Below are positions 36,584 to 52,951 of a DNA stretch of 64,000 nt, in pieces. The notes beneath the pieces are model-generated. The model had not been told where the DNA came from, searched no databases, and worked only from the letters and a program-made list of their open reading frames with translations. The DNA lies in NCBI GenBank assembly GCA_964473525.1, contig CAYYPK010000017.1, positions 1,992-65,991 on the forward strand, read 5' to 3'. The DNA comes from an uncultured bacterium. Its GTDB lineage: Bacteria; Poribacteria; WGA-4E; GCA-2687025. How positions within the stretch are numbered: the first letter of the stretch is position 1; each line of letters begins with the position of its first letter. A program made the translations under genes and the position numbers.

Positions 36584-37306
36584 CTAGCGGTTGGACTTGA
36601 GGTCGCCCCACAGAACGCTGGTCTTACCCTTGGCCTCAACATCGCTGATGATGCCGTAGAACTCGCCATCCTCGTCCGGGGCAATGCCCAGGTTGTCAGC
36701 GTCGAACGCAACGTTGACGTAAGCGGAACCACCGGACTCACCGCACTTGAACAGCATGACGTTGTCGCCAGCGTTCAGGTCGATGTCCGTCGGGGTCGTG
36801 ACGGTGCGGACGCCGCCGGTCCACTGGTCGTTGTCGTAGACCTGCTCGCCGTTGAGCCAGATCTGGAGGTAGTCGTCGTGCGCGGGCTGCATCGTGGTCG
36901 TCTGCGCGCCAGGCGAGCCAACTACGATGATGCCGTACCACTCAATGTCATCGGATCCAGCGTCAAGGCCCCAAGACGTGGCCATGTTGTCGCCATCGTT
37001 TGTATCGATGGTGACATACTGCCAGACGTGGTCGCCGCCGTAGTCGGCCAGGTCAACCACCATGCTCTGGGTCGCGCCAACGCCAGACAACGTCGAGACG
37101 CTCTCGTGCGTGTGCGCTCCGCCAGTGCCCTCACTGATGAAGTCAATCAGGCCGGCGGCGGCGAATCCACCGTTGTTCTCGATGATCTCGAGTCCCTGCC
37201 AACCCTCCACCCACATGTCCGGGCCACTGCCCTGCCTGGCAGCCATCGCGCCGGTCGTGACCAAACCCAGCGCCAAGGCGCCGGCTATGAGCCATGTGCT
37301 CTTCAT
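36584..37306 (-). CDS. Secreted beta-sandwich protein of unknown family (paralog A of three). Signal peptide and a C-terminal WGDLK tail.
   Basis: A 240-aa product with signal peptide MKSTWLIAGALALGLVTTGAMA. Conserved blocks shared with paralogs B and C include NNGGF, MQPAHDDY.QIWLNGEQVYDN..WTGGV.TVT.PT and FKCGESGG. The C-terminus is ...TSVLWGDLKSNR. Confidence 0.75.
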   Translation of the reverse strand: MKSTWLIAGALALGLVTTGAMAARQGSGPDMWVEGWQGLEIIENNGGFAAAGLIDFISEGTGGAHTHESVSTLSGVGATQSMVVDLADYGGDHVWQYVTIDTNDGDNMATSWGLDAGSDDIEWYGIIVVGSPGAQTTTMQPAHDDYLQIWLNGEQVYDNDQWTGGVRTVTTPTDIDLNAGDNVMLFKCGESGGSAYVNVAFDADNLGIAPDEDGEFYGIISDVEAKGKTSVLWGDLKSNR

Positions 37307-37444
37307 GCGTGCGTTTCTCCCGTTGAAAGTTTGAGCAACAGGACCGGATTAGCGGGATGCGCCCGGCCGTTACCCACGTAGGCCGCTGGCGTGAACCAGC
37401 AACGAGACACGTTACCACGTATCCGCAGGTATCCGCAGTGGCCG

Positions 37445-38197
37445 CTAGCGGCTCTTGAGAGCTCCCCACACGGTCGAGACCTTATCCTGCGCCTCTACCG
37501 CGAGCCCGGCGTACTTCCAGAACTCGTCGTCCATCGTCGGGACAATGTCGAGGTCGCTGTCGCCGTCCTCGAAGTGCAGGTTCACGTAGTCATCTCCGCC
37601 CGACTCGCCGCACTTGTAGAACAGGACGTTGTCTCCCTTCAGCAGGTCGACCTCGGTCGGCTGCGTCACGGTCTTGACGCCACCAGTCCAGTCCGGGTTG
37701 TCGTACACCTGCTCGCCGTTCAGCCATATCTGGGCGTAGTCGTCGTGGGCGGGATGCATCGTCGTCTGCCGAGCGCTGGGCGCCTTCAGGACGATGATGC
37801 CGTGCCACGTGAAGTCGGACTGGTCGACGAGGCCCCAACTGGACGACATGTTGCGACTGTCGTCCACGTTAATCGTCACGACCTCCCAGTCCCAGACGCC
37901 GTCCTCGCCCATTCCCTGACCAGAGTGGGCGTCGTCCAGCACGATCTCCGTCCTGTCGAGCAACCGAATGCCTTCGGTCGTGGACAGGAGTTCGTTCGTC
38001 AGGTCGCCACCGGTGGCGTCGGCGAAGTAGTCGACAGCTCCAGCTACATTGTGGCCGCCGTTGTTCATGACGTTTTCCATGGAGAACCACTTGGCGATCC
38101 ACTCGTCGCTGGCGGTCTTCTGGAAGTCGACGGCGCGGGCGGGCGAGACGGCGATGACGATCAGGAACGCGAGACCAAAGATAGCGCTTCGGCGCAT
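37445..38197 (-). CDS. Secreted beta-sandwich protein of unknown family (paralog B)
   Basis: A 250-aa product with signal peptide MRRSAIFGLAFLIVIAVSPARA. It shares the same conserved blocks and ends ...VSTVWGALKSR. Confidence 0.75.
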   Translation of the reverse strand: MRRSAIFGLAFLIVIAVSPARAVDFQKTASDEWIAKWFSMENVMNNGGHNVAGAVDYFADATGGDLTNELLSTTEGIRLLDRTEIVLDDAHSGQGMGEDGVWDWEVVTINVDDSRNMSSSWGLVDQSDFTWHGIIVLKAPSARQTTMHPAHDDYAQIWLNGEQVYDNPDWTGGVKTVTQPTEVDLLKGDNVLFYKCGESGGDDYVNLHFEDGDSDLDIVPTMDDEFWKYAGLAVEAQDKVSTVWGALKSR

Positions 38198-38317
38198 ACA
38201 AACTCCTCCTTATGAACCCGGCGCCGCGCGGCGCGGCGCATGCGATCTGGGCCTGCGTCGACGCGCGATGCGACGGCAAGCCTACCACAGGATACGACAT
38301 ATGGCTCGCAGATGTAA

Positions 38318-38361
38318 CACAACGCCGGGCTTGACCACGGTTGATCTCGCCCGGCGTTGTG
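38318..38361 (-). terminator. Long GC-rich hairpin between paralogs C and B. Candidate terminator or attenuator.
   Basis: A perfect 13-bp inverted repeat, cacaacgccgggc (38318-38330) and gcccggcgttgtg (38349-38361), encloses an 18-nt loop. No clear U-tract. Confidence 0.35.
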
Positions 38362-38392
38362 CGATGTCGTAGACGGTTCTGTCGGCGCGGGG

Positions 38393-39148
38393 CTAGCGAG
38401 TCTTGATGTCGCCCCAGGTCGTGGCGGCCTTGTCATGCGCTTCGACGGCCAAGCTGGTGTGCTTCCAGAACTCACCGTCCTCGGTGGGGACGATGTCCAT
38501 ATCGCTCTCGCTGTCCTCGAAGTGCAGGTTCACGTACGCGGAGCCACCGGACTCACCGCACTTGAAGAGCAGAACATTGTCACCCTTGACGAAGCTTACG
38601 TCCGTCGGAGTGGTGACGGTGCGAACGCCGCCGGTCCACTGACTGTTGTTGTAGACCTGCTCGCCGTTGAGCCATATCTGAGCGTGGTCGTCGTGCGCGG
38701 GGTGCATGGTGGCATCCCTGTTCTTCGACGACTTCATAATGATGATGCCGTACCACTCGATGTTGTCGGTCGCGGCCTGCAAGCCCCACGAGGTCGCCAT
38801 ATTGTCACCATCCTGCGTATTGATGGCTTTGACTTCCCAGTCCCACACGCCGTCTTCACCCATGCCGTTGCCGGCGTACTTCTTGTCAAGCTCTACCGAC
38901 GCCTTGCTCAGGGCGGCCAGCCCGCTGGTCGTTGACGCGGTTTCGTGGGTGACGTCCCCGCCAGTTCCGTCAGAGATGAAGTCGATCACGGCGGAGGCCG
39001 CGAAGCCACCGTTGTTCATGACGACTTCCATTGAGAGCCACTGCTCGATCCAGCCGTCGTCGCCCGTGTGCTGAAAGTTGACCGCGAAGGCCGAGGAGGC
39101 CGCGAAACCGGTAGCGAGGGCCGCACACAGAATCAGGTGCTTCCGCAT
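38393..39148 (-). CDS. Secreted beta-sandwich protein of unknown family (paralog C)
   Basis: A 251-aa product with signal peptide MRKHLILCAALATGFAASSAFA. It shares the same conserved blocks and ends ...ATTWGDIKTR. Confidence 0.75.
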   Translation of the reverse strand: MRKHLILCAALATGFAASSAFAVNFQHTGDDGWIEQWLSMEVVMNNGGFAASAVIDFISDGTGGDVTHETASTTSGLAALSKASVELDKKYAGNGMGEDGVWDWEVKAINTQDGDNMATSWGLQAATDNIEWYGIIIMKSSKNRDATMHPAHDDHAQIWLNGEQVYNNSQWTGGVRTVTTPTDVSFVKGDNVLLFKCGESGGSAYVNLHFEDSESDMDIVPTEDGEFWKHTSLAVEAHDKAATTWGDIKTR

Positions 39149-39292
39149 AGAGATCTCCTTACTTACGTCGGTCGACGAACGCTAACAAGAGGCGGTGCCG
39201 GCGCACGCTTCGGCCGTCACCCCCTTGATTACGATACCAATCTGGACGCGCCAGGTCAAGGCGCTACCTGTGGCAAGCCGCGTGCCATCTCG

Positions 39293-39321
39293 GTTGACAG
39301 CCCGTGAGCCGCCTCCTATAC
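39293..39321 (+). promoter_or_regulatory. Near-consensus sigma70 promoter upstream of the FAH-family gene
   Basis: TTGACA (39293-39298), an exact 17-nt spacer, then TATACT (39316-39321). It lies about 48 nt upstream of the ATG at 39369. Confidence 0.5.
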
Positions 39322-39368
39322 TCACGGTTCCACCAGCCAGTAAAGACACATGAGGCGAGTAGCAGAGC

Positions 39369-40355
39369 ATGGGCACGTTCGTTCGATTCCTGGGCGATGA
39401 CGGCGTTGCGACGTGGGGTGTGGTAGACCAGTCCGACGCCGAAGGACACGCGTCAGGCACGCTCCTAGACGATGTGCCGGCCGAGCACGACCCGGGGTAC
39501 TGGCCAGCGTTGCTAGCCGCCTTTGACGACCCGTCAGGGGGCGAGCCGTTCCATGCCGAGTCAGGCATGATCGTGTCGCCGGTGGGTAGGCCGCCGCAGA
39601 TCCTCGCCATCGGCCTCAACTACCAGGACCACCTGGACGAGATCAACGACGCCAACGCCGCGTCCGGCGCGCCCATCATCCCACAGCCGACCGAACCCAC
39701 TGTGTTCGTGAAGTTCCCGGCGTCCGTCGTCGGGCACGAGGACGCCATCGTCATCCCGCGGATGGCTCCCGCGCAGGTGGACTACGAAGCGGAATTCGCC
39801 GTCGTCATCGGTCGCGAAGCGCTCAACGTGGCGCCGAACAACGCCCTGGACTACGTGGCGTTCTACACGTGTGGTCACGATGTCAGCGCGCGCGATGCGC
39901 AGTTAGAAGCTCCCAACGGTCAGTGGGCGCGCGGCAAGTCATTCGACACCTTCTGTCCGCTTGGACCCTACGCGGCGACCGACCTCGACCCGTCCGGTCT
40001 CGACATTCGCCTCATCCTGAACGGCGAGGCGATGCAGACATCGAACACGCGCCATCTGATCTTCGACGTGCCGACCCTCATCTCCTACCTGTCTCATAAC
40101 ATGACGCTGCTGCCCGGAACGGTGATCATGACCGGCACGCCAGGCGGCGTCGGCCACTTCATGGACCCACCGGTCTACCTCGTTCCAGGCGATGTCACCG
40201 AGGTGCATATCGAGGGCATCGGGCGGCTGCGGAATGACGTGGTCGGAGACGAGACCTCGGGCTACACGCCAGCTACCGCGTTCGCGGGGCCGATGCCAGA
40301 GCCGCGTCCGACAGGTCAGGTTCAGGACGAGGACCAGGACGAAGACGAGGTCTGA
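39369..40355 (+). CDS. Fumarylacetoacetate hydrolase (FAH) family protein
   Basis: AIGLNYQDHLDE...FVKFPASVVGHEDAIVIP...DYEAEFAVVIGREA...GKSFDTFCPLGP...PGTVIMTGTPGGVG are conserved FAH-family blocks. An acidic low-complexity C-terminal tail overlaps the convergent MFS gene by about 34 nt. Confidence 0.85.
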   Translation: MGTFVRFLGDDGVATWGVVDQSDAEGHASGTLLDDVPAEHDPGYWPALLAAFDDPSGGEPFHAESGMIVSPVGRPPQILAIGLNYQDHLDEINDANAASGAPIIPQPTEPTVFVKFPASVVGHEDAIVIPRMAPAQVDYEAEFAVVIGREALNVAPNNALDYVAFYTCGHDVSARDAQLEAPNGQWARGKSFDTFCPLGPYAATDLDPSGLDIRLILNGEAMQTSNTRHLIFDVPTLISYLSHNMTLLPGTVIMTGTPGGVGHFMDPPVYLVPGDVTEVHIEGIGRLRNDVVGDETSGYTPATAFAGPMPEPRPTGQVQDEDQDEDEV

Positions 40356-41569
40356 GCCGACTCGCCAGGCGCGCGCAACAGCAGCCCGAGCGCAACGCCG
40401 GACAGGATTAGGAAGCCGCTTGCTGCGCGGAACACGACGGGAAGCCCCAGATTCCCGGCGATGTACCCGCCGATGGGTGGCCCGACGATACTGCCAAACG
40501 CGCCAGCGAGCTGTAGCATCCCCATGGCCGTTCCACGGGCGGACGGCTTCACCAGATCCGTGATGAGCGCCACGCTGACGATGCTGCCCGCCAGACCGAG
40601 CCCCCACATAGCCTGAGCCACGGCAATCCACGCGAGACTCGAAGCGACGCCCAGGAGGGCGTATCTCGCTCCCGCCGCGATGGACGAGAAGACGAGCAGG
40701 GGCTTCCTGCCTAGCCGATCCGACGCGCGGCCGAGCAGGATGATCACGGGGATCTCGACGACCGCGGCCAGTCCCATCATACGCCCAATCCACGCCTTGG
40801 ACATGCCGAACGTCTCGTCGAGATGGTTGGCGTAGAACTGCATCCCCATCGAGCTGCCGATCGAGCCGAATGCCACGCACGCGTAGAGGACGATGAGGTT
40901 CCTCTCGCGCAACACCTCGCGCCACGCGCCCCAGGGCGATGTCGCCGCCTCTCGCGCGGGTGGCTCGTGGATTCGGGCGCGGGCGAACAGGGCGCAGCCC
41001 AGGTAGATGACCGCCCCTGAGAGGAACGCCGTCGCATACGACGTGTCGCGAGCCACGAGGGGGAGGAGACAGAGGCTCGTGATGGCGAACCCGACACTCC
41101 CGGAAACGCGATAGACCCCATACTGCTTGCCGCGCGAGCCGTCGTGCAGCGTCGTCGTGACGAGGGCGCCTATGTTGAGGCTGTACGCGACCGTGGACGC
41201 GGCGAGGGCGAAGGTGGCGGCGGCGAGCGACCAGAAACTACGGGACGCCAGATGCAGCCCGGTGGCGGCCGCCGATATGGCAAGCCCGGTCACGATCCAC
41301 GGCTTGCGGCGCCCGGAGCCGTCCGACAGCACACCAACGACGATGGGCACTGCGGATGTTGTCGCCGACCGCACGAAGCCCAGCCAGCCAATCTGCTGGA
41401 GGCTCAGGCCGATCCAGGGAGCCCGGTAATAAAGACTGCGCAGCGGCCACACGATGCCCGCGGCGGTACCGAGGGCGACGGTGAGGAACCAGCATGCGCG
41501 AAAGTCACGCGACTGCCAGCCAGACCCCTCGGTCTCCCTGTTCGATGGCTGTGTGTCCGACGGTGGCAC
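40322..41569 (-). CDS. MFS transporter (paralog 1 of 3)
   Basis: A 415-aa product with about 12 predicted TM segments and MFS signature loops GVLSDGSGRRKPWI and LGRASDRLGRKP. It is highly similar to the next two genes. Confidence 0.8.
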   Translation of the reverse strand: MPPSDTQPSNRETEGSGWQSRDFRACWFLTVALGTAAGIVWPLRSLYYRAPWIGLSLQQIGWLGFVRSATTSAVPIVVGVLSDGSGRRKPWIVTGLAISAAATGLHLASRSFWSLAAATFALAASTVAYSLNIGALVTTTLHDGSRGKQYGVYRVSGSVGFAITSLCLLPLVARDTSYATAFLSGAVIYLGCALFARARIHEPPAREAATSPWGAWREVLRERNLIVLYACVAFGSIGSSMGMQFYANHLDETFGMSKAWIGRMMGLAAVVEIPVIILLGRASDRLGRKPLLVFSSIAAGARYALLGVASSLAWIAVAQAMWGLGLAGSIVSVALITDLVKPSARGTAMGMLQLAGAFGSIVGPPIGGYIAGNLGLPVVFRAASGFLILSGVALGLLLRAPGESAQTSSSSWSSS

Positions 41570-41581
41570 GATGCTGGATCT

Positions 41582-42844
41582 CTATGGCGTGCGCGTCGGC
41601 GCCATCGAGGTCGGCAAGGGAGCGTTCGCCTCTGCCGACCGCGGCGGACGGAGGAACAGCAGCAGCCCGACGCCACCGGCGACAGCGAAGCCGCCACCCA
41701 CGCGGAACACGACGGGGAGGCCGATGTTCTGCGCGATGTATCCCCCTACGGGCGGCCCGACAATGCTGCCGAACGCCCACGAGAGCTGTAGCATCCCCAT
41801 CGCGCTGCCCCGCGCGGCAGGTCGCACGAGGTCCGTGATGAGGGCGACACTTACCGTATACCCGGCGAAGCCGAGCCCCCACATCACCTGCGCCACAACA
41901 ACCCACGAAACGTCGGGAGCAATTCCCACCAACGCCCAACGCACGCCGCCGATGATGAACGTGAACACGAGGATCGGCTTCCTCCCCCACCTGTCCGACG
42001 CGCGACCGAGGAGGATGAGAGCAGGAATCTCGATCACCGCGGCGAGGCCGATGATTCGGCCGATCCACGCCTTGGACAGATGGAACGTCTCGTCCAGGTG
42101 GTTGGACATGAACTGCATGCCCATCGACGTGCCGATGGAACTTACCGCCATGAACACGTACAGCACGACCAGGTTGCGCTCGGACAGCACCTCTCTCCAC
42201 GCGCCCCACGGCGACGCGGCGTGCTCTTTGGCTGGCTCCTCGCGAACGCGTAGCGCCGCGAGGACCATGCACACCAGATAGATGCCTGCGCCCGTCAGGA
42301 ACGTAGCCGTGTACGTAGGGTCCATCGTGGCGACGGGTATGATGACAAGGCTTGCCGCAGCGTAGCCGATGCTCCCGGATACGCGGAAGATGCCGAACTG
42401 TCGGCCTCGGGCGTTGTCGTGCAGCGTCGTGGTCACGAGCGCGTTCACGTTGACGTTGTATGCAACGAAAGCCATCGTCGTGACGAACGTCACGGCGGCC
42501 AGGGACCAGAAGCTGCCGGCGAGCAGGTAGAGCGCCACGCCCACGCTGGACAGCGCGAATCCGCCCACGATCCAGGGCTTACGGCGCCCGGAGCCGTCGG
42601 AGAGGACACCGATGAGCACCGGCAGCGCCGCCATCGTCACGGATCGGACGAACCCCAGCCACCCAACCTGCTGTAGGCTCATGCCTACCCACGGCTCACG
42701 GAAATACAGGTTTCGCAGAGGCCACACGAGACCCCACGCGATGCCGAAGGTGGCGGAGATCATCCAACACGTGCGGAAGTCCCGCGAGCGCCAGACGGAC
42801 GGCGCCGGCTCCTGGCTCCTCGCGGATGTCCCGGACGGTGGCAA
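41582..42844 (-). CDS. MFS transporter (paralog 2 of 3)
   Basis: A 420-aa product with the same architecture and motifs (GVLSDGSGRRKPWI, LGRASDRWGRKP). Confidence 0.8.
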   Translation of the reverse strand: MPPSGTSARSQEPAPSVWRSRDFRTCWMISATFGIAWGLVWPLRNLYFREPWVGMSLQQVGWLGFVRSVTMAALPVLIGVLSDGSGRRKPWIVGGFALSSVGVALYLLAGSFWSLAAVTFVTTMAFVAYNVNVNALVTTTLHDNARGRQFGIFRVSGSIGYAAASLVIIPVATMDPTYTATFLTGAGIYLVCMVLAALRVREEPAKEHAASPWGAWREVLSERNLVVLYVFMAVSSIGTSMGMQFMSNHLDETFHLSKAWIGRIIGLAAVIEIPALILLGRASDRWGRKPILVFTFIIGGVRWALVGIAPDVSWVVVAQVMWGLGFAGYTVSVALITDLVRPAARGSAMGMLQLSWAFGSIVGPPVGGYIAQNIGLPVVFRVGGGFAVAGGVGLLLFLRPPRSAEANAPLPTSMAPTRTP

Positions 42845-42894
42845 GTTGAGGTTCTCCTCGACCAGGCTGGCGCAGGCTCAGCCCTCGTGTGGGC

Positions 42895-44121
42895 CTAGCC
42901 CGCCTGCGGCGCGGTGGACGGCGCCCGAAGAAAGGCTAGCAGGCCCACGCCACCCAGGATCGCAACGCCTCCGCCAATCCTGAACACGACGGGCAAGCCT
43001 ACGTTCTGCGCGATGTACCCGCCTACCGGCGGGCCAATGATGCTTCCTACGGCCCAGGACAGTTGCAGCATACCCATGGCGCTGCCGCGTGCTGCGGGCT
43101 TGACCAGATCCGTGATGAGCGCGACTCCGACCGTATAGCCCGCGAAGCCCATGCCCCACAGAAACTGAGCGGCCACGACCCATCCGAGCGAAGGGGCCAG
43201 GCCGATGAGCGTCCAGCGCACGCCGCCCATGATGAACGCGACGACGAGAATCGGCTTGCGCCCCCAGTGGTCCGACGCCCAGCCAAGCGCAATCAGCGCG
43301 GGTATCTCCAGCAACGACGCCAGGCCGACAATCCGCCCTATGGACGCCTTCGACATGCCGAACGTCTCGTCGAGGTGATTCGACAGGAACTGGAAGCCCA
43401 TCGACGTGCCGATGGAGCTGACCGCCAGGCAGGTGTACATCACGACGAGGTTGCGCTCACGCAGCACATCTCGCCACGCGCCCCACTGTGAGCCGGACTC
43501 CCGGGGCGCCGGCGTTTCTTTGATCCCCAGGGACGTCACAACCAGGCAGCCCAGGTAGATCGCCGACCCGGTAAGGAACGTGCTAGCGTAGGTCGTATCG
43601 CGCGCCACCAGTGGAATCAGCGCGAAGGTGGCAAGAGCATAGCCGATGCTTCCCGACACGCGGTATTGGCCGTATTGGCGCCCGCGCGCGTTGTCGTGCA
43701 GCGTCGTCGTCACGAGGGCGTTGACGTTCAGGTTGTAGGCGATGAACGCCACGGCGATGAGGAACGTGACCCCCGCGAGCGTCCAGAACGTGTGGCTGAC
43801 GAGGTATAGGGCGGTCGCCGCGCTGGACAGCACGAAGCCAGCCATGATCCACGGCTTGCGGCGGCCCGAGCGGTCGGAGAGAATCCCAAACGCAAGGGGT
43901 ACGGAAGCCATCGTCGCGGATCGCACGAACCCTAGCCATCCGATCTGCTGAAACGTCAGCCCGACCCATGGCTCGCGAAAATAGAGACTACGCAGTGGGA
44001 ACACGATGCCCCACGCCACGTTGAACAGGGCCGTGAGACCCCAGCACACCAGGAAGTCGCGCGAACGCCACACCGACGTGGCGGGCCGAGAGTAGGGCGG
44101 TTCTGATCCAGGCAGGGACAA
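42895..44121 (-). CDS. MFS transporter (paralog 3 of 3)
   Basis: A 408-aa product with the same architecture and motifs (GILSDRSGRRKPWI, LGWASDHWGRKP). Confidence 0.8.
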   Translation of the reverse strand: MSLPGSEPPYSRPATSVWRSRDFLVCWGLTALFNVAWGIVFPLRSLYFREPWVGLTFQQIGWLGFVRSATMASVPLAFGILSDRSGRRKPWIMAGFVLSSAATALYLVSHTFWTLAGVTFLIAVAFIAYNLNVNALVTTTLHDNARGRQYGQYRVSGSIGYALATFALIPLVARDTTYASTFLTGSAIYLGCLVVTSLGIKETPAPRESGSQWGAWRDVLRERNLVVMYTCLAVSSIGTSMGFQFLSNHLDETFGMSKASIGRIVGLASLLEIPALIALGWASDHWGRKPILVVAFIMGGVRWTLIGLAPSLGWVVAAQFLWGMGFAGYTVGVALITDLVKPAARGSAMGMLQLSWAVGSIIGPPVGGYIAQNVGLPVVFRIGGGVAILGGVGLLAFLRAPSTAPQAG

Positions 44122-44254
44122 GCGCGGAGTCTCTCTGTGCGCGAGGGTTGGAACACGGGAATCATAGCTTACGCGGGCAGGTGGGTCACGGGCAGTCCCA
44201 ACGCCCCAGCTACTCTAGCCCGATACGCAGGCACGACACCGTAGGAGAAACGCG

Positions 44255-45097: not shown

Positions 45098-45118
45098 GGT
45101 CTTGGTCGGTACGCACCA

Positions 45119-45152
45119 GAAGGGGAGCGCCCAAGCCTGGGAGCTCCCCTTC
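45119..45152 (+). terminator. Hairpin just downstream of the epimerase stop (45097)
   Basis: A perfect 10-bp stem, gaaggggagc (45119-45128) and gctccccttc (45143-45152), encloses a 14-nt loop. No U-tract. Confidence 0.4.
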
Positions 45153-46048: not shown

Positions 46049-46070
46049 GCGCCGAAAGGGGTGTGCGACC

Positions 46071-46391
46071 ATGGATGAGAAGGAGGCTGCCGGAGGAGTA
46101 TCGCCGATTCGGCAGTATCACTTGAAACTGGACGATCCCGACCTGCTCGTGTTCGTCCGGCACGTGACCAACAGGGCGTGGAGGGGTATTGCCCCCCAGC
46201 TGCCGGCGGAGGCGCGATCCGCTGAGACATACCTCACGATGCGCAGGGCGATCGAAGAGGAGCTACGCGAACACGTCGTCGGTATGGACCTATGTGGACT
46301 CTCGACCGTGTGCGTCGAGTCCGAGGAATACGACCCGTGGCCCGAGGCTGGCAACTTGCCCTCCGGGCTGATCGAACCGCAGAGAGCATGA
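46071..46391 (+). CDS. Hypothetical protein (106 aa)
   Basis: This is the C-terminal part of track ORF 45567..46391. From the ATG at 46071 (MDEKEAAGGVSPIRQYHLKLDDPDLLVFVRHVTNRAW...) the composition looks protein-like. The upstream 168 aa of the track ORF are R/S/P/G-rich and span a non-coding gap. Confidence 0.35.
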   Translation: MDEKEAAGGVSPIRQYHLKLDDPDLLVFVRHVTNRAWRGIAPQLPAEARSAETYLTMRRAIEEELREHVVGMDLCGLSTVCVESEEYDPWPEAGNLPSGLIEPQRA

Positions 46392-46409
46392 ACTCACCGG
46401 CCCTCCCTC

Positions 46410-47891
46410 GTGGGAGGGCCTTTCTACGTCGGAATATATATTATGTCCCGCTCATTAGCTGTCGATACCCGCGAGGCGCCGCGCGTCGGTACCGTGTCCC
46501 TCGGGAGGTGGGGCGTTGTCGGGGGCGCGTTACTTATCCAGGCAATCCTCGGCACCGTATATGCCTTTAGCGTCCTGGTGGAACCCTTCGAGACGGCGTT
46601 CGCGTGGTCCAGAACACAGATAACCACTACGGCCAGCATATCCCTGGGCGTGTTCGCGCTGACGATGGTCGTTGCCGGTGGCGTCCTCGACCGTCGAGGG
46701 CCACGGTTCACCGCGCTCATCGGCGCGGGCTTCCTAACGACGGCGTTCCTCGCCGTGAGTCAGATGAGGTCGCTGGCGGCTATGTACGTCGTGCATGGCA
46801 TTGTCACGGCGGCGGTCGCGGTGGGGCTCTATCTGCTCATCAACACGATCACCGGTGGTAAGCGGTCGCCGGTCGCCGACAGCATGAAGATCGGCGCGAT
46901 GATTGGGGTGGCTGTCACATCCCTGCTGGTTGCCCAGGGCATGATCAAGGGCACGTCGACAGACTCGCTGTGGATGTTCTATCTCACCTATGGATTCCTG
47001 GGCGGAATTGGGATCGGCTTCGGCTACGTCGCCCCGGTCACCGCGTGCGTGAAGTGGTTTCCCAACCATAGGGGCCTCATCACGGGCATCGCCGTGGCGG
47101 GCTTTGGGGCCGGCTCCATGATATTCGCCCCGTCCGCGCGCTGGACGATTGACGCGCTGGGCTGGTCAAGCTTCTTCCTTATCCACGGTTTCGTCTGTGC
47201 CGCCGGTCTCAGTATCGGCGCCCTGCTGCTGAGGAACCCGTCCGATGAAGACAAGGCGAGGCTCGGTTCCGTCCGACATGCCGCCAAGGAACCGGGCGAG
47301 GAGACCCATTGGTCTGAAATGGTGCGCACGTGGAAGTTCTGGCGGCTCTGGATCCTGTTCGTGTTCGGGGCGACAGCGGGTTTGATGACGATCACTCAGC
47401 TGAAGCCGTTCGCCACGTTGCAGGGACTCACGGCTGGTCAGGGCGCCGCCGCGATCGCGGTCCTCGCCGCGTGCAACGCCGCTGGCCGAACACTCTGGGG
47501 CGCCGCGTCCGACCGCATCGGACGGAGCCGGAGTATGGCCGCCATGTTCGCCCTCCAGGCTGTGATGATGTTCGCCATCAACGGCTTCGATGGGCCGACG
47601 CTCTTCTTCCTCGCAGCTGGATGGGTCGGTTTCAATTTCGGCGGCATCTTTGCCCTGTTCCCGTCCGCCACGGCAGACTCCTTCGGCACGCGGGGCCTGG
47701 GAACGAACTACGGCATCGTCTTTACCGCCTATGGCGTCGCCGGGATTCTCGGTCCCATTGTCGCGGCCAGGGTGTATGACGCGACGCAGACATATGCGGT
47801 GGCGTTCACGTTTGCGGCCATCCTGTGTGTCGCCGCGGCAGTCATCGCGCTCTTCTCGGGGCGCGCCGCGCGGCGCGCGCAGACCGCGTAG
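46410..47891 (+). CDS. MFS transporter of the oxalate/formate antiporter (OFA)-like family
   Basis: A 493-aa product with 12 predicted TM segments. GALLIQAILGTVYAFSVLVEPFE is typical of the OFA family N-terminus. An alternative start is ATG 46443 (MSRSL...). Confidence 0.75.
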   Translation: MGGPFYVGIYIMSRSLAVDTREAPRVGTVSLGRWGVVGGALLIQAILGTVYAFSVLVEPFETAFAWSRTQITTTASISLGVFALTMVVAGGVLDRRGPRFTALIGAGFLTTAFLAVSQMRSLAAMYVVHGIVTAAVAVGLYLLINTITGGKRSPVADSMKIGAMIGVAVTSLLVAQGMIKGTSTDSLWMFYLTYGFLGGIGIGFGYVAPVTACVKWFPNHRGLITGIAVAGFGAGSMIFAPSARWTIDALGWSSFFLIHGFVCAAGLSIGALLLRNPSDEDKARLGSVRHAAKEPGEETHWSEMVRTWKFWRLWILFVFGATAGLMTITQLKPFATLQGLTAGQGAAAIAVLAACNAAGRTLWGAASDRIGRSRSMAAMFALQAVMMFAINGFDGPTLFFLAAGWVGFNFGGIFALFPSATADSFGTRGLGTNYGIVFTAYGVAGILGPIVAARVYDATQTYAVAFTFAAILCVAAAVIALFSGRAARRAQTA

Positions 47892-48032
47892 CGGGGACGC
47901 TTGCCAGGTCGGCCTCGGATGGGGCCGACCTGGCGCTCCCCGAGCGTGCATGCTCCGCCGACGTGTGGGCCGTTGTTGGCTCTGCTATGATCGTCGCGCC
48001 GCGACGCACGAGGGCGCACGTAGGGAGCTAGC

Positions 48033-48764
48033 ATGTCGCACGATCTGACACCCGAACAGGTGGAGCAGTTCCGCGAGGACGGCTACCTCGGCCCCTTCGA
48101 GCTATGCCCGCCCGACGAGATGGCGCGCATCGCCGCGCGTGTAGACGCCGAAGTGCTTGCAGGCGAAGCCCCGCCACAAGGGCATCACCAGTCCCGGCAT
48201 CTAGACAGCCGGGTGGTCTACGACCTCTGCGCTCATGAAGCGATAGTGTCTCGCATGGCCAGCGTCTACGGGCCTGACCTGCTTCTCTGGCGTTCCCACT
48301 TCTTCCTGAAAGAACCGGGAGCGGCGGAAGTGCCGTGGCACCAGGATACGAACTACTGGCCGCTGGAGCCGCCGCTGAATATCTCGGCGTGGGTCGCTAT
48401 CGACGACGTGACGGTCGAGAACGCGTGCGTCAACATCATCCCCGGGTCGCACCAGAGCGTTGTCCCGCACGTACGCTCCCCGGAAGGGATGCTCTTCGCG
48501 GAGATGGCGGACATGGACTACATCGACACCTCGACGGCTGTCCCGATGGAACTGCGCGCCGGGGAGTTCTTCCTCTTCAACGAGCGCACGGTGCATCAGT
48601 CGGAGCCGAACCGCTCCGACCGCCGGAGGCTGGGGCTCGCGGTACGCGTGACGACGCCGATCGTCCGGGTGGACCACCGACGCCTCTTTCCGGGTCACAA
48701 GGCCGTCCCGCTGTGCGGCGAGGACCGTATGGACCTCAACGAAGTCGGCGCCCCGCCGGACTGA
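48033..48764 (+). CDS. Phytanoyl-CoA dioxygenase (PhyH) family Fe(II)/2-oxoglutarate oxygenase
   Basis: WHQDTNYWPLEP fits the HxD region, and IIPGSHQ places the distal His in a PhyH-like context. Confidence 0.8.
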   Translation: MSHDLTPEQVEQFREDGYLGPFELCPPDEMARIAARVDAEVLAGEAPPQGHHQSRHLDSRVVYDLCAHEAIVSRMASVYGPDLLLWRSHFFLKEPGAAEVPWHQDTNYWPLEPPLNISAWVAIDDVTVENACVNIIPGSHQSVVPHVRSPEGMLFAEMADMDYIDTSTAVPMELRAGEFFLFNERTVHQSEPNRSDRRRLGLAVRVTTPIVRVDHRRLFPGHKAVPLCGEDRMDLNEVGAPPD

Positions 48765-48773
48765 CGCCGTTGC

Positions 48774-49586
48774 CTACAGTGCCACGTTCTCGGGGCCGAA
48801 GTAGTCGTTTGGCTGCGCCTTCGAGAAGTCGTGATGCCACACGCCTCGGAATAGCGTCCTGCGTTTCGGGGGCATCGCCCCAATCACCTCGGTCGGCAGA
48901 TTCAGCTTGTGGTACTGCGCGTCGGCGTTGCTGTAGCAGTTGAAGACGGCAACGCGCGGGTTCTCCTTCGTCTTCCACACCGGGCCAGCGTGGTTCACGC
49001 TTTCAGAGAAGATGATCGCCGACCCGGGGGGACACTCATACGTCTCGAACAGCGGGGAGTCGAAGCCCTGGTGCGACTCGGGGATCGGGAAGTTCATCTT
49101 GTGACTGCCGGACATGACGAGCGTGCCGCCCTCGCCCTTCCGCACGGGGTTGAGCTCCCACGCCACCCGCGTCAGGCCGCTGTAGATGCTGCCGTTCTGG
49201 TAGGAGTACTTGTGGACTCCTACTCCGAGGCCGCCGCCGTGCGGCTCGAGTCCCACCTGCCCCTCGCTGCGGATCATCGGGAAGCTATTCTCGCATCGGA
49301 AGCCGTAGCACCCTTCGTGACGGTCGCCGCCCAAGACGCCACGCAGGATCGTCACGATCGCTGGGTGGTCCACCAGCACTTGGGCAGGGCCGCTTAGCGA
49401 GTATCGGTCCTTCGGGTCAAGGCTGTCGCGGTCGTCCCGTAGCGCGTAGACGTGCTCGCGGATGGCGGCTACCTCGTCCGCGGCGAGTATGCCGGGAAGC
49501 AGAAGCCACCCTTTCAGGTCGAAGACGAACTTCTGCTCGTCGGTCATCGGCAGCGCGGCGTCGAGGGGGTGATCTTCGTAGGCCAC
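48774..49586 (-). CDS. PhyH-like/cupin-fold hypothetical protein (paralog 1 of tandem pair)
   Basis: A GTG start at 49584-49586 is preceded by aggaga. This gives VAYEDHPLDAALPMTDEQKFVFDLKGW..., collinear with the paralog's MTYEDHPADAALPMTDEQKFIFDLKGW. The longer track ORF to 49727 adds an Arg-rich extension judged spurious. The iron-binding motif is non-canonical (LEPHGGG ... SGSHK). Confidence 0.55.
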   Translation of the reverse strand: MAYEDHPLDAALPMTDEQKFVFDLKGWLLLPGILAADEVAAIREHVYALRDDRDSLDPKDRYSLSGPAQVLVDHPAIVTILRGVLGGDRHEGCYGFRCENSFPMIRSEGQVGLEPHGGGLGVGVHKYSYQNGSIYSGLTRVAWELNPVRKGEGGTLVMSGSHKMNFPIPESHQGFDSPLFETYECPPGSAIIFSESVNHAGPVWKTKENPRVAVFNCYSNADAQYHKLNLPTEVIGAMPPKRRTLFRGVWHHDFSKAQPNDYFGPENVAL

Positions 49587-49660
49587 GAGGGTCTCCTGGG
49601 TCAGGGCGAGTAGCGGACGCAGAGATCCTCTCGCCAGGCTTCTCCGCGCTCGCGCGTGCG

Positions 49661-50467
49661 CTACAGGGCCACGTTCTCGTCGCTGAAGTAGTCGTTCGGC
49701 TGCGCCTCGGCGAAGTTGTGATGCCACACGCCTCGGAAGAGCGTCCGACGCTTCGGGGGCATCGCCTCAATCACCTCGGTCGGCAGGTTGAGCTTGTGGA
49801 ACTGCGCGTCGGCGTTGCTGTAGCAGTTGAACACGGCGACGCGCGGATGCTCCTTCGTCTTCCACAGCGGGCCAGCGTGGTTCACGCTCTCGGAGAACAT
49901 GATCGCGGAACCCGGCGGGCACTCGTACGTCTCGAAGAGCGGGGAGTCGAAGCCCTTGTGCGACTCGGGAATCGGGAAGTTCATTTTGTGGCTGCCAGAC
50001 ATGACGAGCGTGCCGCCCTCTCCCTTCCGAACCGGGTTCAGCTCCCACGCGACCCGGGTGAGGCCACTGTAGATGTCGCCATTCTGGAAGGAGTAGCTGT
50101 GCAGGCCTCTGGGGCCTGCGTGAGGTACCAGCCCGACTTCCCCCTCGCTGCGGATCATCGGGAAGCTGTTCTCGCACCGGAAGCCGTAGCAACCGTCATG
50201 GCGGTCCGCGCCCAGCACCCCGCGCAACACCGAGACGATCGCGGGATGGTCCACCAGGATCTGCGCCGGGCCGCTGAGCGAATAGCGGTCCTTTGGATCA
50301 AGGCTGTCGCGGTCGTCCCTCAGCGCGTAGATGTGCTCACGGATAGCGGCCACTTCGTCGTCCGCAAGCAGTCCAGGGAACAGGAGCCACCCCTTCAGGT
50401 CGAAGATGAACTTCTGCTCGTCGGTCATGGGTAGGGCGGCGTCGGCTGGGTGGTCCTCGTACGTCAT
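49661..50467 (-). CDS. PhyH-like/cupin-fold hypothetical protein (paralog 2 of tandem pair)
   Basis: A 268-aa product about 80% identical to the adjacent paralog. Confidence 0.65.
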   Translation of the reverse strand: MTYEDHPADAALPMTDEQKFIFDLKGWLLFPGLLADDEVAAIREHIYALRDDRDSLDPKDRYSLSGPAQILVDHPAIVSVLRGVLGADRHDGCYGFRCENSFPMIRSEGEVGLVPHAGPRGLHSYSFQNGDIYSGLTRVAWELNPVRKGEGGTLVMSGSHKMNFPIPESHKGFDSPLFETYECPPGSAIMFSESVNHAGPLWKTKEHPRVAVFNCYSNADAQFHKLNLPTEVIEAMPPKRRTLFRGVWHHNFAEAQPNDYFSDENVAL

Positions 50468-50828
50468 GTCTTTCCTCCTCTGTCGTCCGGGGAGGCGAGC
50501 ATACGCGTCGCGCGGCGTCGCTGCAAACCGCCTTGAACGGCGCCGCCGGCCTCGGAGGATCTGTCGGCCGAAGTCCGACGGTCCTGGACGGTAGATGCGA
50601 CAGCCGGCGCGCGGCCCAGCATGGCCTGCGAGGCGACGTTGGAAGCACGTGGTTCACGAAGCAGGCGATCCCCCGAATAGAGAAGGACATCCTTGCCTGC
50701 CACCGGTACTGGGCGGTCACCGGCCGAGAGTGTCAGGTTGCGCGAGTGAGGGCAGGGAAACTATACTCTACACTGGTGTAACTGGGTGTGGGGCCGACAT
50801 GGGGTCATCCGTTCGTGGAGGCGAGGAT

Positions 50829-51875
50829 ATGCTGTCGGAGCACAGAACACCGCAACGACGCGAACATCCGCAGGCAGGGAGGCCATGCCACGTGGTCGGT
50901 CTGCTGTCTCTGCTTGTGCTGTTGGCAGCGGCCGCGCACGCACGCTCCCACGGGGAGCTGATCCTGTACGAGCACATCACCGGCCCCCGCGACGATCGCG
51001 AATACAGTCTCCGCACGATGGCTCCGGACGGTTCGAACGATACGTGGCTGGCGGTGGGGTTCGCGCGCGGACACGACTGGTCGCCCGACGGGTCGACGAT
51101 TGTGCTGGCAGGACTCGAGGTGATGTCGACGCTACGATGCGACGGCACGATGGTCTCGCAAACGCCCCTTCCACCCGGCATGGGGTCCGCCGAGCCCGCA
51201 TGGTCGCCAGACGGACTTAGAGTTGCGTTCTGGGCCGAAACCCGCGGACTCACGCATATCTGGATGCTGGAGTTGGCCACCGGCGCCCTTGTGGACCTCA
51301 CTGTGCCACAGGTACCCGCACGCATCCCAAGGGAGCACAGCCCGTCGTGGTCGCCCGATGGGACGCAGCTTGTGTACGACTCAAGCCGCGATCGGGAGTT
51401 CTGGTTGCGGCCCGAGGGTGACCCTCGTGGCGCGGCGCTGACGGCGGACCTGCACATCATGACGGATGCTGGCGCCCACGTGGTAAACCTGACGCAGAGC
51501 CTGGACCACGAGTACGATCCTGCGTGGTCGCCGGCTGGCCATGAGATCGCGTTCCTCAGACGTCCCGAAGGCGGCTTCGCATCCGTGTTCGTACTCGACA
51601 TCGACGCCGGAACCGAGTGGCGACTCACCGACGACGACATAGGGGCGCGGGACCCCTCGTGGGCGCCAGATGGACAGCGCATCGTCTTTGCGGCATTCGA
51701 CGCCAAGAACCCGTCGGGGTGGGACATCTTCGTGGTTGATCGCGACGGCGGCGCCCTGGCTCAGATCACCGACCACGGAGGCGAGTTGGCGCGGCGGCCC
51801 ATATGGTTCGATCCCGGCCTCGACGCATCCGCGGCGGGAAAGCTGCCCACCATGTGGGGAGAACTGAAATGGTGA
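50829..51875 (+). CDS. Secreted TolB-like WD40/PD40 beta-propeller repeat protein (paralog 1)
   Basis: The start is ATG 50829 with ggagg 7 nt upstream, in frame inside track ORF 50595..51875. The signal peptide is MLSEHRTPQRREHPQAGRPCHVVGLLSLLVLLAAAAHA. Repeated WSPDG motifs (DWSPDGS, PAWSPDGL, PSWSPDGT, PAWSPAGH, PSWAPDGQ) mark the PD40 repeats. The C-terminus is ...AAGKLPTMWGELKW. Confidence 0.7.
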   Translation: MLSEHRTPQRREHPQAGRPCHVVGLLSLLVLLAAAAHARSHGELILYEHITGPRDDREYSLRTMAPDGSNDTWLAVGFARGHDWSPDGSTIVLAGLEVMSTLRCDGTMVSQTPLPPGMGSAEPAWSPDGLRVAFWAETRGLTHIWMLELATGALVDLTVPQVPARIPREHSPSWSPDGTQLVYDSSRDREFWLRPEGDPRGAALTADLHIMTDAGAHVVNLTQSLDHEYDPAWSPAGHEIAFLRRPEGGFASVFVLDIDAGTEWRLTDDDIGARDPSWAPDGQRIVFAAFDAKNPSGWDIFVVDRDGGALAQITDHGGELARRPIWFDPGLDASAAGKLPTMWGELKW

Positions 51876-52951
51876 CACGAGCGACGAGGCTACGGATGCG
51901 ACACTGGGGCCGGGGTAGCGTGGGTCGCGTAGGCATCTGCATCGCCGTCGTCCTTGCGCATGTCATCTTCGCCGGTAGCGTCCTGGCACGCCCGCAGACC
52001 CCGCTGATCGTGTACCAGCATATGGTTAGGAGGGGAGACGACCTCGCGGTCAACCTGCGCACGATGGAGCCGGACGGCTCGAACGACAAGTGGCTCGCGA
52101 AGGACGGGTGGCAGCCGGGCCCCGACTGGTCGCCCGACGGTTCCCGCATCGTGCTGGGTTCGGCAGAGAACGTGTTGGTGACAATGCGTTGTGACGGGAC
52201 GGATCGCAGGGCAATCGGGCTCCCCGAAGGCGTTCGGCCCATGGAACCGAGGTGGGCGCCAGACGGACGCCGTGTGGTCTTCTATGCCTATGTTCCCATC
52301 GCAGTGGCCAACTGGCGCCCACACGTCTTCGTGCTGGACACGGCTACTGAGGCGCTGACGGATCTTACCGAGGCAATCGGAGGGGACCTCCTATGGGATG
52401 AACGCCCACACTGGTCTCCCGATGGGACGCGGATTGTGTTCGATTCGCTACGGGACAGGGAGTTCTGGGCGGAACAGCCAGACGCTGCGAAGCAGAAGGG
52501 CGCCCTGACCGCGGACCTGCATGTGATGACGGCTGACGGCGTCTACATCCGTAACCTCACGCAGAGCAAGGACAGCGAGGAGGATCCCGCATGGTCGCCC
52601 GACGGTGAGTTCATCGCGTACACGTGGAGGGGGCCCAACGCCAGTCCACCGCAAGTAGGGGTACGGGATGTCGCGACGGGTCGTACCCGACTACTCACCG
52701 AGCCCGAGCTGTGGGCAAGTGATCCGTCCTGGTCCCCGGACGGCGGGCGGATCATGTTCTCCGCAGCTGAATCGAGGAATCTAGCCAAGGGCTCGAACGT
52801 ATTCGCGATAGGCCGGGACGGCGGGAATCTGACCCAGCTCACCCACTACGAGTGGGAGTCCGCAAGAGAGCCAGCTTGGTTCGATCCTGGCCTCGCGGTA
52901 TCTCCCGCAGCGAAACTGCCGACGATGTGGGGCGAACTGAAGTGGTGGTAG
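51869..52951 (+). CDS. Secreted TolB-like WD40/PD40 beta-propeller repeat protein (paralog 2)
   Basis: The ATG at 51869 follows ggggaga and overlaps the previous stop (aaATGgTGA). The signal-like N-terminus is MVTRATRLRMRHWGRGSVGRVGICIAVVLAHVIFAGSVLA. It has the same WSPDG repeats and ends ...AAKLPTMWGELKWW. Confidence 0.7.
   Translation: MVTRATRLRMRHWGRGSVGRVGICIAVVLAHVIFAGSVLARPQTPLIVYQHMVRRGDDLAVNLRTMEPDGSNDKWLAKDGWQPGPDWSPDGSRIVLGSAENVLVTMRCDGTDRRAIGLPEGVRPMEPRWAPDGRRVVFYAYVPIAVANWRPHVFVLDTATEALTDLTEAIGGDLLWDERPHWSPDGTRIVFDSLRDREFWAEQPDAAKQKGALTADLHVMTADGVYIRNLTQSKDSEEDPAWSPDGEFIAYTWRGPNASPPQVGVRDVATGRTRLLTEPELWASDPSWSPDGGRIMFSAAESRNLAKGSNVFAIGRDGGNLTQLTHYEWESAREPAWFDPGLAVSPAAKLPTMWGELKWW

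Follow-up and report, generated by a model that had tools for sequence, protein, structure and literature searches.

A disordered 16-residue C-terminal tag on unrelated exported proteins of Poribacteria as a candidate signal for sorting or anchoring at the cell surface

We identified in a 64 kb stretch of poribacterial DNA (hereafter the window, which denotes the whole stretch analysed) five open reading frames (ORFs) for exported-type proteins that share a 16-residue C-terminal tail (Table 1). All five were present as the initial annotation had described them, with the C-terminal ends that it had quoted, and the W-G-x-[LI]-K motif that it had placed within 3 residues of the stop does lie 1-3 residues before it in each (5/5). 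The tag of sandwich paralogue 1, for example, carries its WGDLK core 3 residues ahead of the stop. Signal peptides had been claimed for both fold families, and an N-terminal hydrophobic signal-like segment was recovered in 5/5 window proteins (MKSTWLIAGALALGLVTTGAMAA in sandwich paralogue 1). The three beta-sandwich paralogues (240-251 aa) could not be assigned to any Pfam family and gave only a faint PA14 match; the top Foldseek hits of the sandwich AF2 model, PA14/CBM35/CBM6-type lectin sandwiches, were likewise weak (TM about 0.35). Paralogue 1 has the same sequence as P0019 and is 53% identical to paralogue 3. The remaining two proteins had been read as TolB-like beta-propeller paralogues, as borne out by their Pfam PD40 matches. 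The start of both is uncertain: the ORFs are open from 50595 and 51803, and the database gene calls begin at GTG codons at 50892 (P0147, identical to propeller paralogue 1 over 327 aa) and 51920 (P0140, 100% identity to propeller paralogue 2).

Table 1. Tagged genes and their C-terminal tags in the window.
Feature	Position	Strand	Details
Exported PA14-like lectin beta-sandwich paralogue 1, tagged	36584-37306	-	240 aa; ORF and translation; C-terminus ...KTSVLWGDLKSNR
C-terminal tag DVEAKGKTSVLWGDLKSNR of sandwich paralogue 1	36587-36643	-	computed coordinates
Exported PA14-like lectin beta-sandwich paralogue 2, tagged	37445-38197	-	250 aa; C-terminus ...KVSTVWGALKSR
C-terminal tag AVEAQDKVSTVWGALKSR of sandwich paralogue 2	37448-37501	-	
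Exported PA14-like lectin beta-sandwich paralogue 3, tagged	38393-39148	-	251 aa; C-terminus ...KAATTWGDIKTR
C-terminal tag AVEAHDKAATTWGDIKTR of sandwich paralogue 3	38396-38449	-	predicted disordered
ORF of propeller paralogue 1	50595-51875	+	C-terminus ...KLPTMWGELKW
Exported PD40/TolB-like beta-propeller paralogue 1, tagged	50892-51875	+	Pfam PD40 9e-20
C-terminal tag DASAAGKLPTMWGELKW of propeller paralogue 1	51822-51872	+	
ORF of propeller paralogue 2	51803-52951	+	C-terminus ...KLPTMWGELKWW
Exported PD40/TolB-like beta-propeller paralogue 2, tagged	51920-52951	+	Pfam PD40 8e-22
C-terminal tag AVSPAAKLPTMWGELKWW of propeller paralogue 2	52895-52948	+	predicted disordered

The expression WG.[LIVM]K matched exactly five times in the six frames of the window, each time 1-3 residues before the stop of one of these genes. 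In 200 windows simulated with a first-order Markov model, the mean number of matches was 0.215 overall and 0.02 no more than 3 residues from a stop. The K-x2-T-x-W-G tail first proposed is real, but its extent had been drawn too short: the core begins with A-V-[ED]-[PA] 10-11 residues before the Trp and comprises 16 residues, A-V-[EDN]-[PA]-x-[GD]-K-L-[AT]-T-T-W-[GA]-D-[LI]-K. The full element adds 1-4 polar or basic residues to this core; over all carriers, the residues past the last Lys vary in number (1-9) and identity and are for the most part R, S, Q, K or T. Thr-Thr-Trp and the two Lys hardly vary, and the family-weighted frequencies are 100% for the Trp, 94% for K(-5), 95% for L(-4), 94% for K(+4) and 95% for V(-10). 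At positions -5 to +4 the logo is biased by the strict pattern used in the search; V(-10) lies outside that pattern. Conservation so far beyond physicochemical need speaks for a single specific partner protein and not for loose lipid binding.

A DNA-pattern scan of 185,579 species-representative genomes, to which a relaxed rescan was added, returned at least 120 loci. The taxa of 120 of them were Poribacteria (110), unlabelled metagenome-assembled genomes (MAGs, 8) and other taxa (2), the last being the two non-terminal chance matches. C-terminal matches among the loci listed come only from Candidatus Poribacteria or unlabelled MAGs; among these loci, the tag is restricted to the phylum Poribacteria. 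The strict pattern ended 1-9 residues before a stop in 131 of 133 matches, and when about 1 Mb of sequence from these genomes was translated in six frames, the extended motif lay no more than 10 residues from a stop 207 times and farther away once. Searched with a profile, a library of 1.84 billion cluster representatives yielded 341 clusters at E<=0.001, and the position was terminal in 141 of the 145 best new matches from this library. We found neither an NCBIfam or Pfam model for the tag nor a prior description of it in the literature. The tag fulfils the criterion set for a proposed new class, namely a 16-residue core that lies no more than 10 residues from the C-terminus of Sec-exported proteins with unrelated folds and is restricted to one phylum.

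The initial annotation had conceded that its proposal would fail if the motif were confined to the two paralogue families or merely formed the last strand of both folds, and neither proved to be the case. At least 16 BLAST-unrelated families in Poribacteria carry the tag, including proteins with Pfam matches to Laminin_G_3, PD40, HmuY and DUF4960, giants with a Lamin Tail Domain, a family with a weak 3keto-disac_hyd match, PA14-like lectins and several families without any Pfam match; Kelch (propeller) fragments are tagged as well. Lectins, HmuY and DUF4960 proteins and giant adhesins are typically surface proteins in other phyla. An N-terminal hydrophobic signal-like stretch was present in 156 of 161 full-length tagged ORFs (97%) vs 37% of untagged ORFs. 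A further hydrophobic segment beyond the N-terminus was found in only two of the 161 (window ORF 50595-51875 and one at locus L075), and that of the window ORF is the product of a mis-called start. The tagged genes occur as islands, up to five in a row. As for structure, the AF2 models of both window folds are confident to the ends of their domains (pLDDT about 95) and show no strand in the tail (pLDDT 36-59). In sandwich paralogue 3 (mean pLDDT 89.3) the domain stays at about 95 up to residue 230 and the tail falls to 45-59, and in propeller paralogue 2 pLDDT stays above 90 as far as about residue 340 and is below 50 over the final 17 residues. In the sandwich family the tag follows a variable linker, and PD40 homologues without the tail, two from Gaiellaceae among them, stop at the last propeller blade. 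In these models, the tag is appended to its carriers and is not part of either fold.

Known C-terminal signals resemble the tag in some respects, and a type IX secretion (T9SS) type A C-terminal domain (CTD) occurs in the same window. The giant adhesins encoded at 4665-13952(-) and 20028-27677(+), to which T9SS domains had been attributed, both exceed the TIGR04183 cut-off of 23 (scores of 24.9 and 30.0). Like the tag, T9SS CTDs occupy the extreme C-terminus of unrelated Sec-exported surface proteins and adhesins and have no transmembrane (TM) segment. They are, however, folded Ig-like domains of about 70-100 residues with their own HMM, whereas the tag is a disordered 16-mer without a match to the T9SS model in NCBIfam (five window proteins at E<=10, three others at E<=0.01). 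We therefore ruled out a T9SS type A CTD, in agreement with the distinction originally drawn. The PEP-CTERM, LPXTG, GlyGly-CTERM, MYXO-CTERM and related tripartite signals share with the tag a short signature motif, a spacer, a basic end, a lineage-restricted distribution and many unrelated exported carriers, and the A-V-E-P of the tag is reminiscent of the V-P-E-P of PEP-CTERM. Yet where all of these signals have a hydrophobic membrane-spanning helix of about 20 residues between the motif and the basic end, the tag has a 10-residue polar stretch, K-L-A-T-T-W-G-D-L-K, and no NCBIfam CTERM model matched the tail of the five window proteins at E<=10. The separation from these four classes, made in the first reading, is upheld: PEP-CTERM/exosortase is rejected, despite the V-E-P-like motif and the basic end, for lack of a TM segment and of an NCBIfam match; LPXTG/sortase, for lack of the LPXTG motif in the logo and of a TM segment; and GlyGly-CTERM, MYXO-CTERM and the other Haft CTERM classes, for lack of a TM segment and of a match to any class HMM. 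The beta-signal of outer membrane proteins, recognised by BamA, is likewise short, C-terminal and read in the periplasm, and both window propellers end in Trp. That signal has its aromatic residue in the last position and belongs to beta-barrels, whereas the final residue of most tags is R, K, S or Q and their carriers are soluble sandwiches and propellers, which rules it out. Encapsulin and microcompartment peptides are short disordered terminal peptides that target unrelated cargo from behind a linker, and the ...GSLK tails of encapsulin cargo bear a superficial G-x-L-K resemblance to the tag. Their cargo is cytoplasmic, however, and the export-type N-termini of 97% of the tagged proteins exclude such a role.

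The tag is distributed as a sorting signal would be: it occurs throughout the lineage, strictly at the terminus and on many unrelated exported families, and selection on it at the protein level is strong. Its anatomy (very short, disordered, without a membrane helix) is unlike that of the known classes compared. On balance we favour its interpretation as a modular, Poribacteria-specific recognition peptide through which one partner sorts cargo to, or holds it at, the cell surface. The sorting or anchoring role, the single partner and whether the tag is cleaved are inferred from anatomy and distribution only, in the absence of localisation or proteomic data. The carrier would be exported by Sec via its ordinary N-terminal signal peptide; one common periplasmic partner (a receptor, translocon or processing enzyme) would then read the flexible, exposed tail and either send the cargo to the cell surface or retain it there; most of this cargo is made up of lectin-like sandwiches, beta-propellers, HmuY-like proteins and giant adhesins. 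By analogy, we infer that the tag could be a functional counterpart of the T9SS CTD, PEP-CTERM and LPXTG signals, although it is built differently, with 16 residues and nothing that spans the membrane. A transpeptidase mechanism like that of sortase, exosortase and rhombosortase is unlikely, since the tag has no hydrophobic segment of the sort that keeps their substrates at the membrane. One tagged protein (locus L121, 9205-9987) has a lipoprotein-type signal, which would make simple membrane anchoring by the tag redundant there. The more specific proposal that an unrecognised post-Sec pathway exists, in which a lineage-specific receptor, translocon or enzyme reads the TM-less disordered tag and displays a large set of lectin-like proteins and giant adhesins on the cell surface, is put forward tentatively, as something that may or may not hold. 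Gene-neighbour analysis identified no partner enzyme or receptor and gave leads only, namely an Omp85 cluster beside LamG genes and, next to tagged genes from three families, a DUF6785/DUF6784 membrane protein. Both leads rest on few independent contexts.

New envelope machineries have been discovered repeatedly by way of C-terminal sorting signals (sortase, exosortase, rhombosortase and the T9SS), and if the tag is such a signal, its reading machinery is probably new too. Poribacteria are dominant symbionts of sponges and have never been cultured. T9SS-like CTDs but no T9SS structural genes were reported from their genomes; the secretion route was called unresolved and the export of host-interaction proteins left open (Kamke et al., 2014; PMC3909097). 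A sorting pathway for tagged proteins, if real, could supply the secretion route that these sponge symbionts were noted to lack, and the tag would be a one-step predictor of their surface proteome. It defines a candidate set (lectins, propellers, HmuY-like proteins and giant adhesins) readable directly from sequence. It also predicts a tryptic peptide, e.g., L-[AT]-T-T-W-[GA]-D-[LI]-K, that can be searched for in sponge metaproteomes and would tell retention of the tail from its removal.

Some of this evidence could also accommodate a docking peptide that stays on the mature protein and tethers lectin-like proteins non-covalently to a common envelope scaffold or receptor, without translocation or cleavage, much like a cohesin-dockerin arrangement in miniature. 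The tail is disordered and exposed and presents four spaced hydrophobic anchors (V-10, L-4, W0 and L/I+3) flanked by invariant lysines, a layout typical of peptide-in-groove recognition. The islands of consecutive tagged genes and the tagging of at least one lipoprotein-like protein that is already membrane-anchored point the same way. No scaffold candidate was found, however, and such a peptide need not sit 1-4 residues from the C-terminus, whereas the motif practically never occurs inside a protein. Docking also overlaps with the sorting or anchoring role that we prefer, and sequence alone cannot separate the two. We regard it as unlikely without dismissing it. Less probable still is a modification sequon, in which a polytopic membrane enzyme such as the DUF6785/DUF6784 protein would act on T-T-W or the two lysines by O- or C-glycosylation or by cross-linking to peptidoglycan or LPS. 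The near invariance of these residues would suit such an enzyme, and the 640-aa DUF6785+DUF6784 protein (about 11 hydrophobic segments) adjoins, or lies two genes from, tagged LamG, DUF4960 and sandwich genes at 8 loci, which represent about 4 independent contexts. But a sequence search of the PDB detected no relative of this protein, which also lacks an NCBIfam assignment, is absent from the window and belongs to a Pfam family that is presumably not confined to Poribacteria. It is otherwise surrounded by metabolic and transporter genes (PhyH, Na/Ca exchanger, enolase-like) and may therefore be no more than a transporter itself.

A strictly terminal, disordered motif near the free carboxyl end also recalls the ligands of PDZ domains and Tsp, and the tag could in principle be a degron or regulatory peptide through which a periplasmic PDZ-type or tail-specific protease controls the turnover or maturation of the carriers. 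We find this very improbable: PDZ domains recognise chiefly the last 3-4 residues of a ligand, whereas the residues after the last Lys of the tag vary in number and identity, and a degradation signal maintained by strong purifying selection in at least 16 families of abundant, expanded surface-type proteins would be hard to explain. Finally, although each of the two window families could have inherited its tail by duplication, the notion that there is no tag at all, only a final structural strand that the proteins have in common by chance or paralogy, or else a repeat or terminator in the DNA that is translated at the 3' ends of genes, is refuted by the spread over at least 16 unrelated families, the AF2 disorder, the tail-less PD40 homologues and the variety of codons. 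All six Leu, all four Thr and both Lys codons are used at the conserved positions of the tag, and the same amino acid motif occurs in the 65% G+C window and at other Poribacteria loci, where the codons often end in A or T. Synonymous codons thus vary freely, and selection acts on the protein.

When the 64 kb window was translated in six frames, W-G-x-[LIVM]-K appeared just five times, in each case 1-3 residues before the stop of a different open reading frame (ORF). Simulations that preserved the window's dinucleotide statistics gave a mean of 0.215 such pentamers in total and 0.02 beside a stop. Translation confirmed that the five ORFs exist and end as quoted in the initial annotation, with the motif no more than 3 residues from the stop, and their signal-like N-termini (5/5) agree with the export signals it had assigned to both fold families. 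Three of these ORFs encode paralogues (lectin-like beta-sandwiches) without a Pfam or NCBIfam family, and the other two encode PD40/TolB-like propellers whose database gene calls start within longer ORFs. Tandem arrays or islands are common for tagged genes, with three in a row in the window and five in L121, a locus from the genome scan described below. One of the five L121 gene products, of 260 amino acids, combines a lipoprotein-like signal (…LILSCGDD) with the C-terminal tag AVNPIDKLASTWGRIKTAF.

Coordinates of tagged genes, neighboring features and partner leads (window positions unless a locus from the genome scan is named)
Feature	Locus	Positions	Strand	Remarks
Giant adhesin-like ORF	window	4665-13952	-	3095 aa
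Long ORF upstream of third T9SS-type domain	window	14387-18625		frame differs from that of the domain
Third T9SS-type C-terminal domain	window	~18570-18863	+	frame 0; LPNFPNPFNPETW...RRMVIQK, then stop
Giant adhesin-like ORF	window	20028-27677	+	2549 aa
Three sandwich paralogues	window	36584-39148	-	240-251 aa; tagged
Three tandem MFS_1-like transporter paralogues	window	40322-44121	-	
Three PhyH (phytanoyl-CoA dioxygenase)-like paralogues	window	48033-50467		
PD40/TolB-like propeller	window	50595-51875	+	tagged; database start GTG 50892
PD40/TolB-like propeller	window	51803-52951	+	tagged; database start GTG 51920
Proteasome subunit	window	53194-53910	-	PF00227 match
ORF of 282 aa	window	53976-54824	-	adjoins proteasome subunit
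Pup-ligase family protein	window	55129-56655	-	PF03136, E = 1e-174
Proteasome/Pup-ligase group	window	53194-56655	-	probably extends to 58482
Tagged island	L121	7184-15574		uninterrupted run of five tagged genes (four for PD40 double propellers, one for a 260-aa protein)
DUF6785+DUF6784 protein	L053, L063, L074, L086, L087, L099, L107, L108			640 aa, ~11 hydrophobic segments; adjoins or lies two genes from tagged genes
Omp85 cluster	L009, L040, L042, L062, L085, L108, L109			beside LamG-tag genes

Structure predictions indicated that the tail is an appendage and not a structural element. AF2 models built with family alignments were confident over the domains but not over the tails: the sandwich had a pLDDT of ~95 as far as residue 230 and of 45-59 in its tail, and the propeller stayed above 90 as far as ~residue 340 and fell below 50 in its tail. 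No strand was predicted in either tail, which removes the possibility, raised in the initial annotation, that the motif is simply the last beta-strand of both folds. The best PDB matches of the sandwich model were carbohydrate-binding modules (PA14, CBM35 and CBM6), with low TM-scores. In the sandwich alignment, the last conserved domain block is followed by a linker of variable length and then by the tail. Among the best 120 PD40 homologues, 36 were tagged, and both tagged ones with a source name (P0232 and P0249) were from Poribacteria; untagged homologues, such as those of Gaiellaceae, stop at the last blade (...PDWQP..). A tail of this kind could also be an amphipathic-helix membrane anchor of the PBP5 type, for which the sole sign in AF2 was a helical turn of low confidence (residues 245-250). 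Such an anchor is unlikely, though not excluded, because the conservation is residue-specific rather than physicochemical.

The distribution of the tag is that of a modular element restricted to one phylum. A scan of 185,579 species (one genome each) with the back-translated pattern K-L-x-T-T-W-[AG]-D-[IL]-K recovered at least 120 loci. Among the 120 loci listed, 110 were labelled Poribacteria, 8 were unlabelled metagenome-assembled genomes and 2 came from other taxa (Bacteroidaceae and Frisingicoccus). The latter were exactly the two matches that were not C-terminal; in these listed loci, a stop followed 131 of 133 strict-pattern matches at a distance of 1-9 residues. Compared without their tags, the carriers in the listed loci formed at least 11 BLAST-unrelated clusters, and 69 further tagged ORFs came from rescanning these loci with a relaxed pattern, for 16 families in all. 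The motif is not, then, confined to the two paralogue families of the window; such confinement would have refuted the original proposal. Pfam names among the carriers included Laminin_G_3, PD40, HmuY, DUF4960, 3keto-disac_hyd (weak) and Lamin-Tail-Domain giants of up to ~1,900 residues; several carriers had no family, and Kelch-type fragments were also tagged. In the Lamin-Tail-Domain giants (e.g., the 715-aa protein of L054 and proteins P0263-P0404), the tag follows a ~95-residue domain (…W.T.SE.NN.GFNILR…YYYQIEDVS.DG.R…) that had no Pfam or NCBIfam match.

Database searches extended this distribution. A 40-aa tail profile (A3) retrieved 57 candidates, all of them fragments of 41-70 aa that gave no view of family breadth, seemingly because the word index prefers targets of similar length; these fragments were reused to build a further profile (A5). 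Against 1.84 billion cluster representatives, a tail profile matched at least 341 clusters at E ≤ 0.001; this count is a minimum, since a match to the tag alone scores near the threshold. The core was no more than 8 residues from the C-terminus in 141 of the best 145 new matches from this search. Homologues of the sandwich protein encoded at 38393-39148 were hypothetical proteins, and every named source was Candidatus Poribacteria. All but 2 of the 110 homologues (P0077 and P0110, which end differently) kept the tail, at identities down to 39%, with the consensus V-E-[PA]-x-G-K-L-[AT]-T-[TQ]-W-[AG]-[DA]-[IL]-K-[RK]-x. The tag was also present in the WGA-3G single-cell genome (L092) from a 2014 study of Poribacteria.

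The tagged proteins are Sec-exported and are of surface-protein types. An N-terminal hydrophobic signal-like stretch was present in 156 of the 161 full-length tagged ORFs compared to 37% of the untagged ORFs in the same loci, and the five exceptions were truncated genes or had mis-called starts. Further transmembrane-like segments were essentially absent. Both assessments relied on a crude hydropathy test rather than a trained predictor. The export signals rule out a targeting peptide for encapsulins or microcompartments, whose cargo differs in this respect from the tag carriers.

We derived the anatomy of the tag from a family-weighted logo over 189 tagged ORFs, numbering the 16-residue core relative to the invariant Trp (position 0, 100%). 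Upstream are A (59%) at -11, V (95%) at -10, E, N or D at -9, P (54%) or A (30%) at -8, a variable residue at -7, G (52%) or D (19%) at -6, K (94%) at -5, L (95%) at -4, A or T at -3, and T at -2 (86%) and -1 (73%). Downstream are G (51%) or A (49%) at +1, D (54%) at +2, L (58%) or I (29%) at +3 and K (94%) at +4, followed by 1-4 polar or basic residues, mostly 2-3, with Arg the commonest. The search pattern inflates positions -5 to +4; V(-10), A(-11), P/A(-8) and G/D(-6) lie outside it and thus provide independent confirmation. Across ~1 Mb, 207 copies of the extended motif were terminal and a single one was not, seemingly because a stop codon had been lost. Every synonymous codon occurs at the conserved positions (six for Leu, four for Thr and both for Lys), and the amino-acid motif is the same in the 65% G+C window and in other Poribacteria loci, where A/T-ending codons often encode the tag, therefore excluding a translated DNA repeat or terminator. 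Selection thus acts on the protein, and on specific residues of a disordered, strictly terminal peptide.

No described signal matched this anatomy. NCBIfam models, including those for CTERM and T9SS sorting signals, had no match to the tail at E ≤ 10, Pfam had nothing on it, and no description of the motif was found in open-access papers and bioRxiv. The only match of the tail profile to PDB sequences (8dj2_A 'Adhesin', residues 7-16, VSPKGKLATT; E = 0.35) is probably due to chance, as it is N-terminal and covers, identically, only the first half of the consensus. The distinction drawn originally from T9SS C-terminal domains and the CTERM and LPXTG classes was upheld. PEP-CTERM, LPXTG, GlyGly-CTERM, MYXO-CTERM and their relatives are defined by a transmembrane helix, which the tag lacks, and T9SS C-terminal domains differ from the unfolded tag in being folded and five times as long. 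Nor does it end in an aromatic residue, as the beta-signal of outer membrane proteins does. There is a formal likeness to tripartite signals (A-V-E-P motif, spacer and basic end), but the spacer is a polar decamer (K-L-A-T-T-W-G-D-L-K) instead of a membrane helix. The two giant adhesins of the window do end in T9SS type A domains, as initially annotated, scoring above the TIGR04183 cut-off. Their own secretion route is unexplained, because the T9SS-like domains reported in Poribacteria were not accompanied by T9SS structural genes, and the route was left open (Kamke et al., 2014; PMC3909097). A third T9SS-type domain is out of frame with the long ORF upstream, which could point to a frameshifted gene or pseudogene, to a misassembly, or to an upstream ORF that is spurious in this high-G+C sequence.

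These results support the initial interpretation that the shared tail is a C-terminal tag not described before and no mere coincidence of structure; it is best placed, in general terms, among the C-terminal signals for protein sorting or anchoring. Because residues are specifically conserved across families that share nothing else, one common protein partner would be expected to read the tail after export. We lean, with some reserve, toward the view that the tag most likely serves to sort its carriers to the cell surface or to retain them there, given the types of cargo and, by analogy, the C-terminal signals on interchangeable adhesin or lectin domains; this function is inferred and unproven. 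From sequence alone, cleavage of the tag, its retention as a docking peptide and its modification cannot be told apart.

Two weak leads to a partner emerged from the neighborhoods. A polytopic DUF6785/DUF6784 protein, possibly a transporter, or else a candidate tag partner or modifying enzyme, was the only membrane protein beside three different tagged families (8 loci, ~4 independent contexts). With so few independent contexts and metabolic neighbors, it is a lead and not a finding; its profile had no match among PDB sequences, and neither domain was found in open-access papers and bioRxiv. The second lead is a cluster encoding an Omp85-family protein (~800 aa), a PA14 protein (TonB-like N-terminal anchor, Pro-rich region and PA14 domain), DUF4159 and PhyH, which seems to represent a single locus, syntenic between genomes. 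Other recurrent neighbors (sulfatase, FGE, PhyH and Gfo/Idh/MocA) are apparently just abundant in these loci, and BatD/TPR genes were confined to the sandwich family, in synteny.

PhyH-like paralogues also lie between the two tagged clusters of the window and are among the commonest neighbors of tagged genes elsewhere, probably due to a strong expansion of the family in Poribacteria. The MFS_1-like paralogues are separated from the sandwich paralogues by only a FAA-hydrolase gene, a three-plus-three arrangement not seen beside sandwich genes in other Poribacteria loci. Finally, the minus-strand group with proteasome and Pup-ligase genes, in which the 282-aa ORF reads, by eye only, like a second proteasome subunit, suggests that a Poribacteria genome encodes a Pup-proteasome system, which is best known from Actinobacteria.
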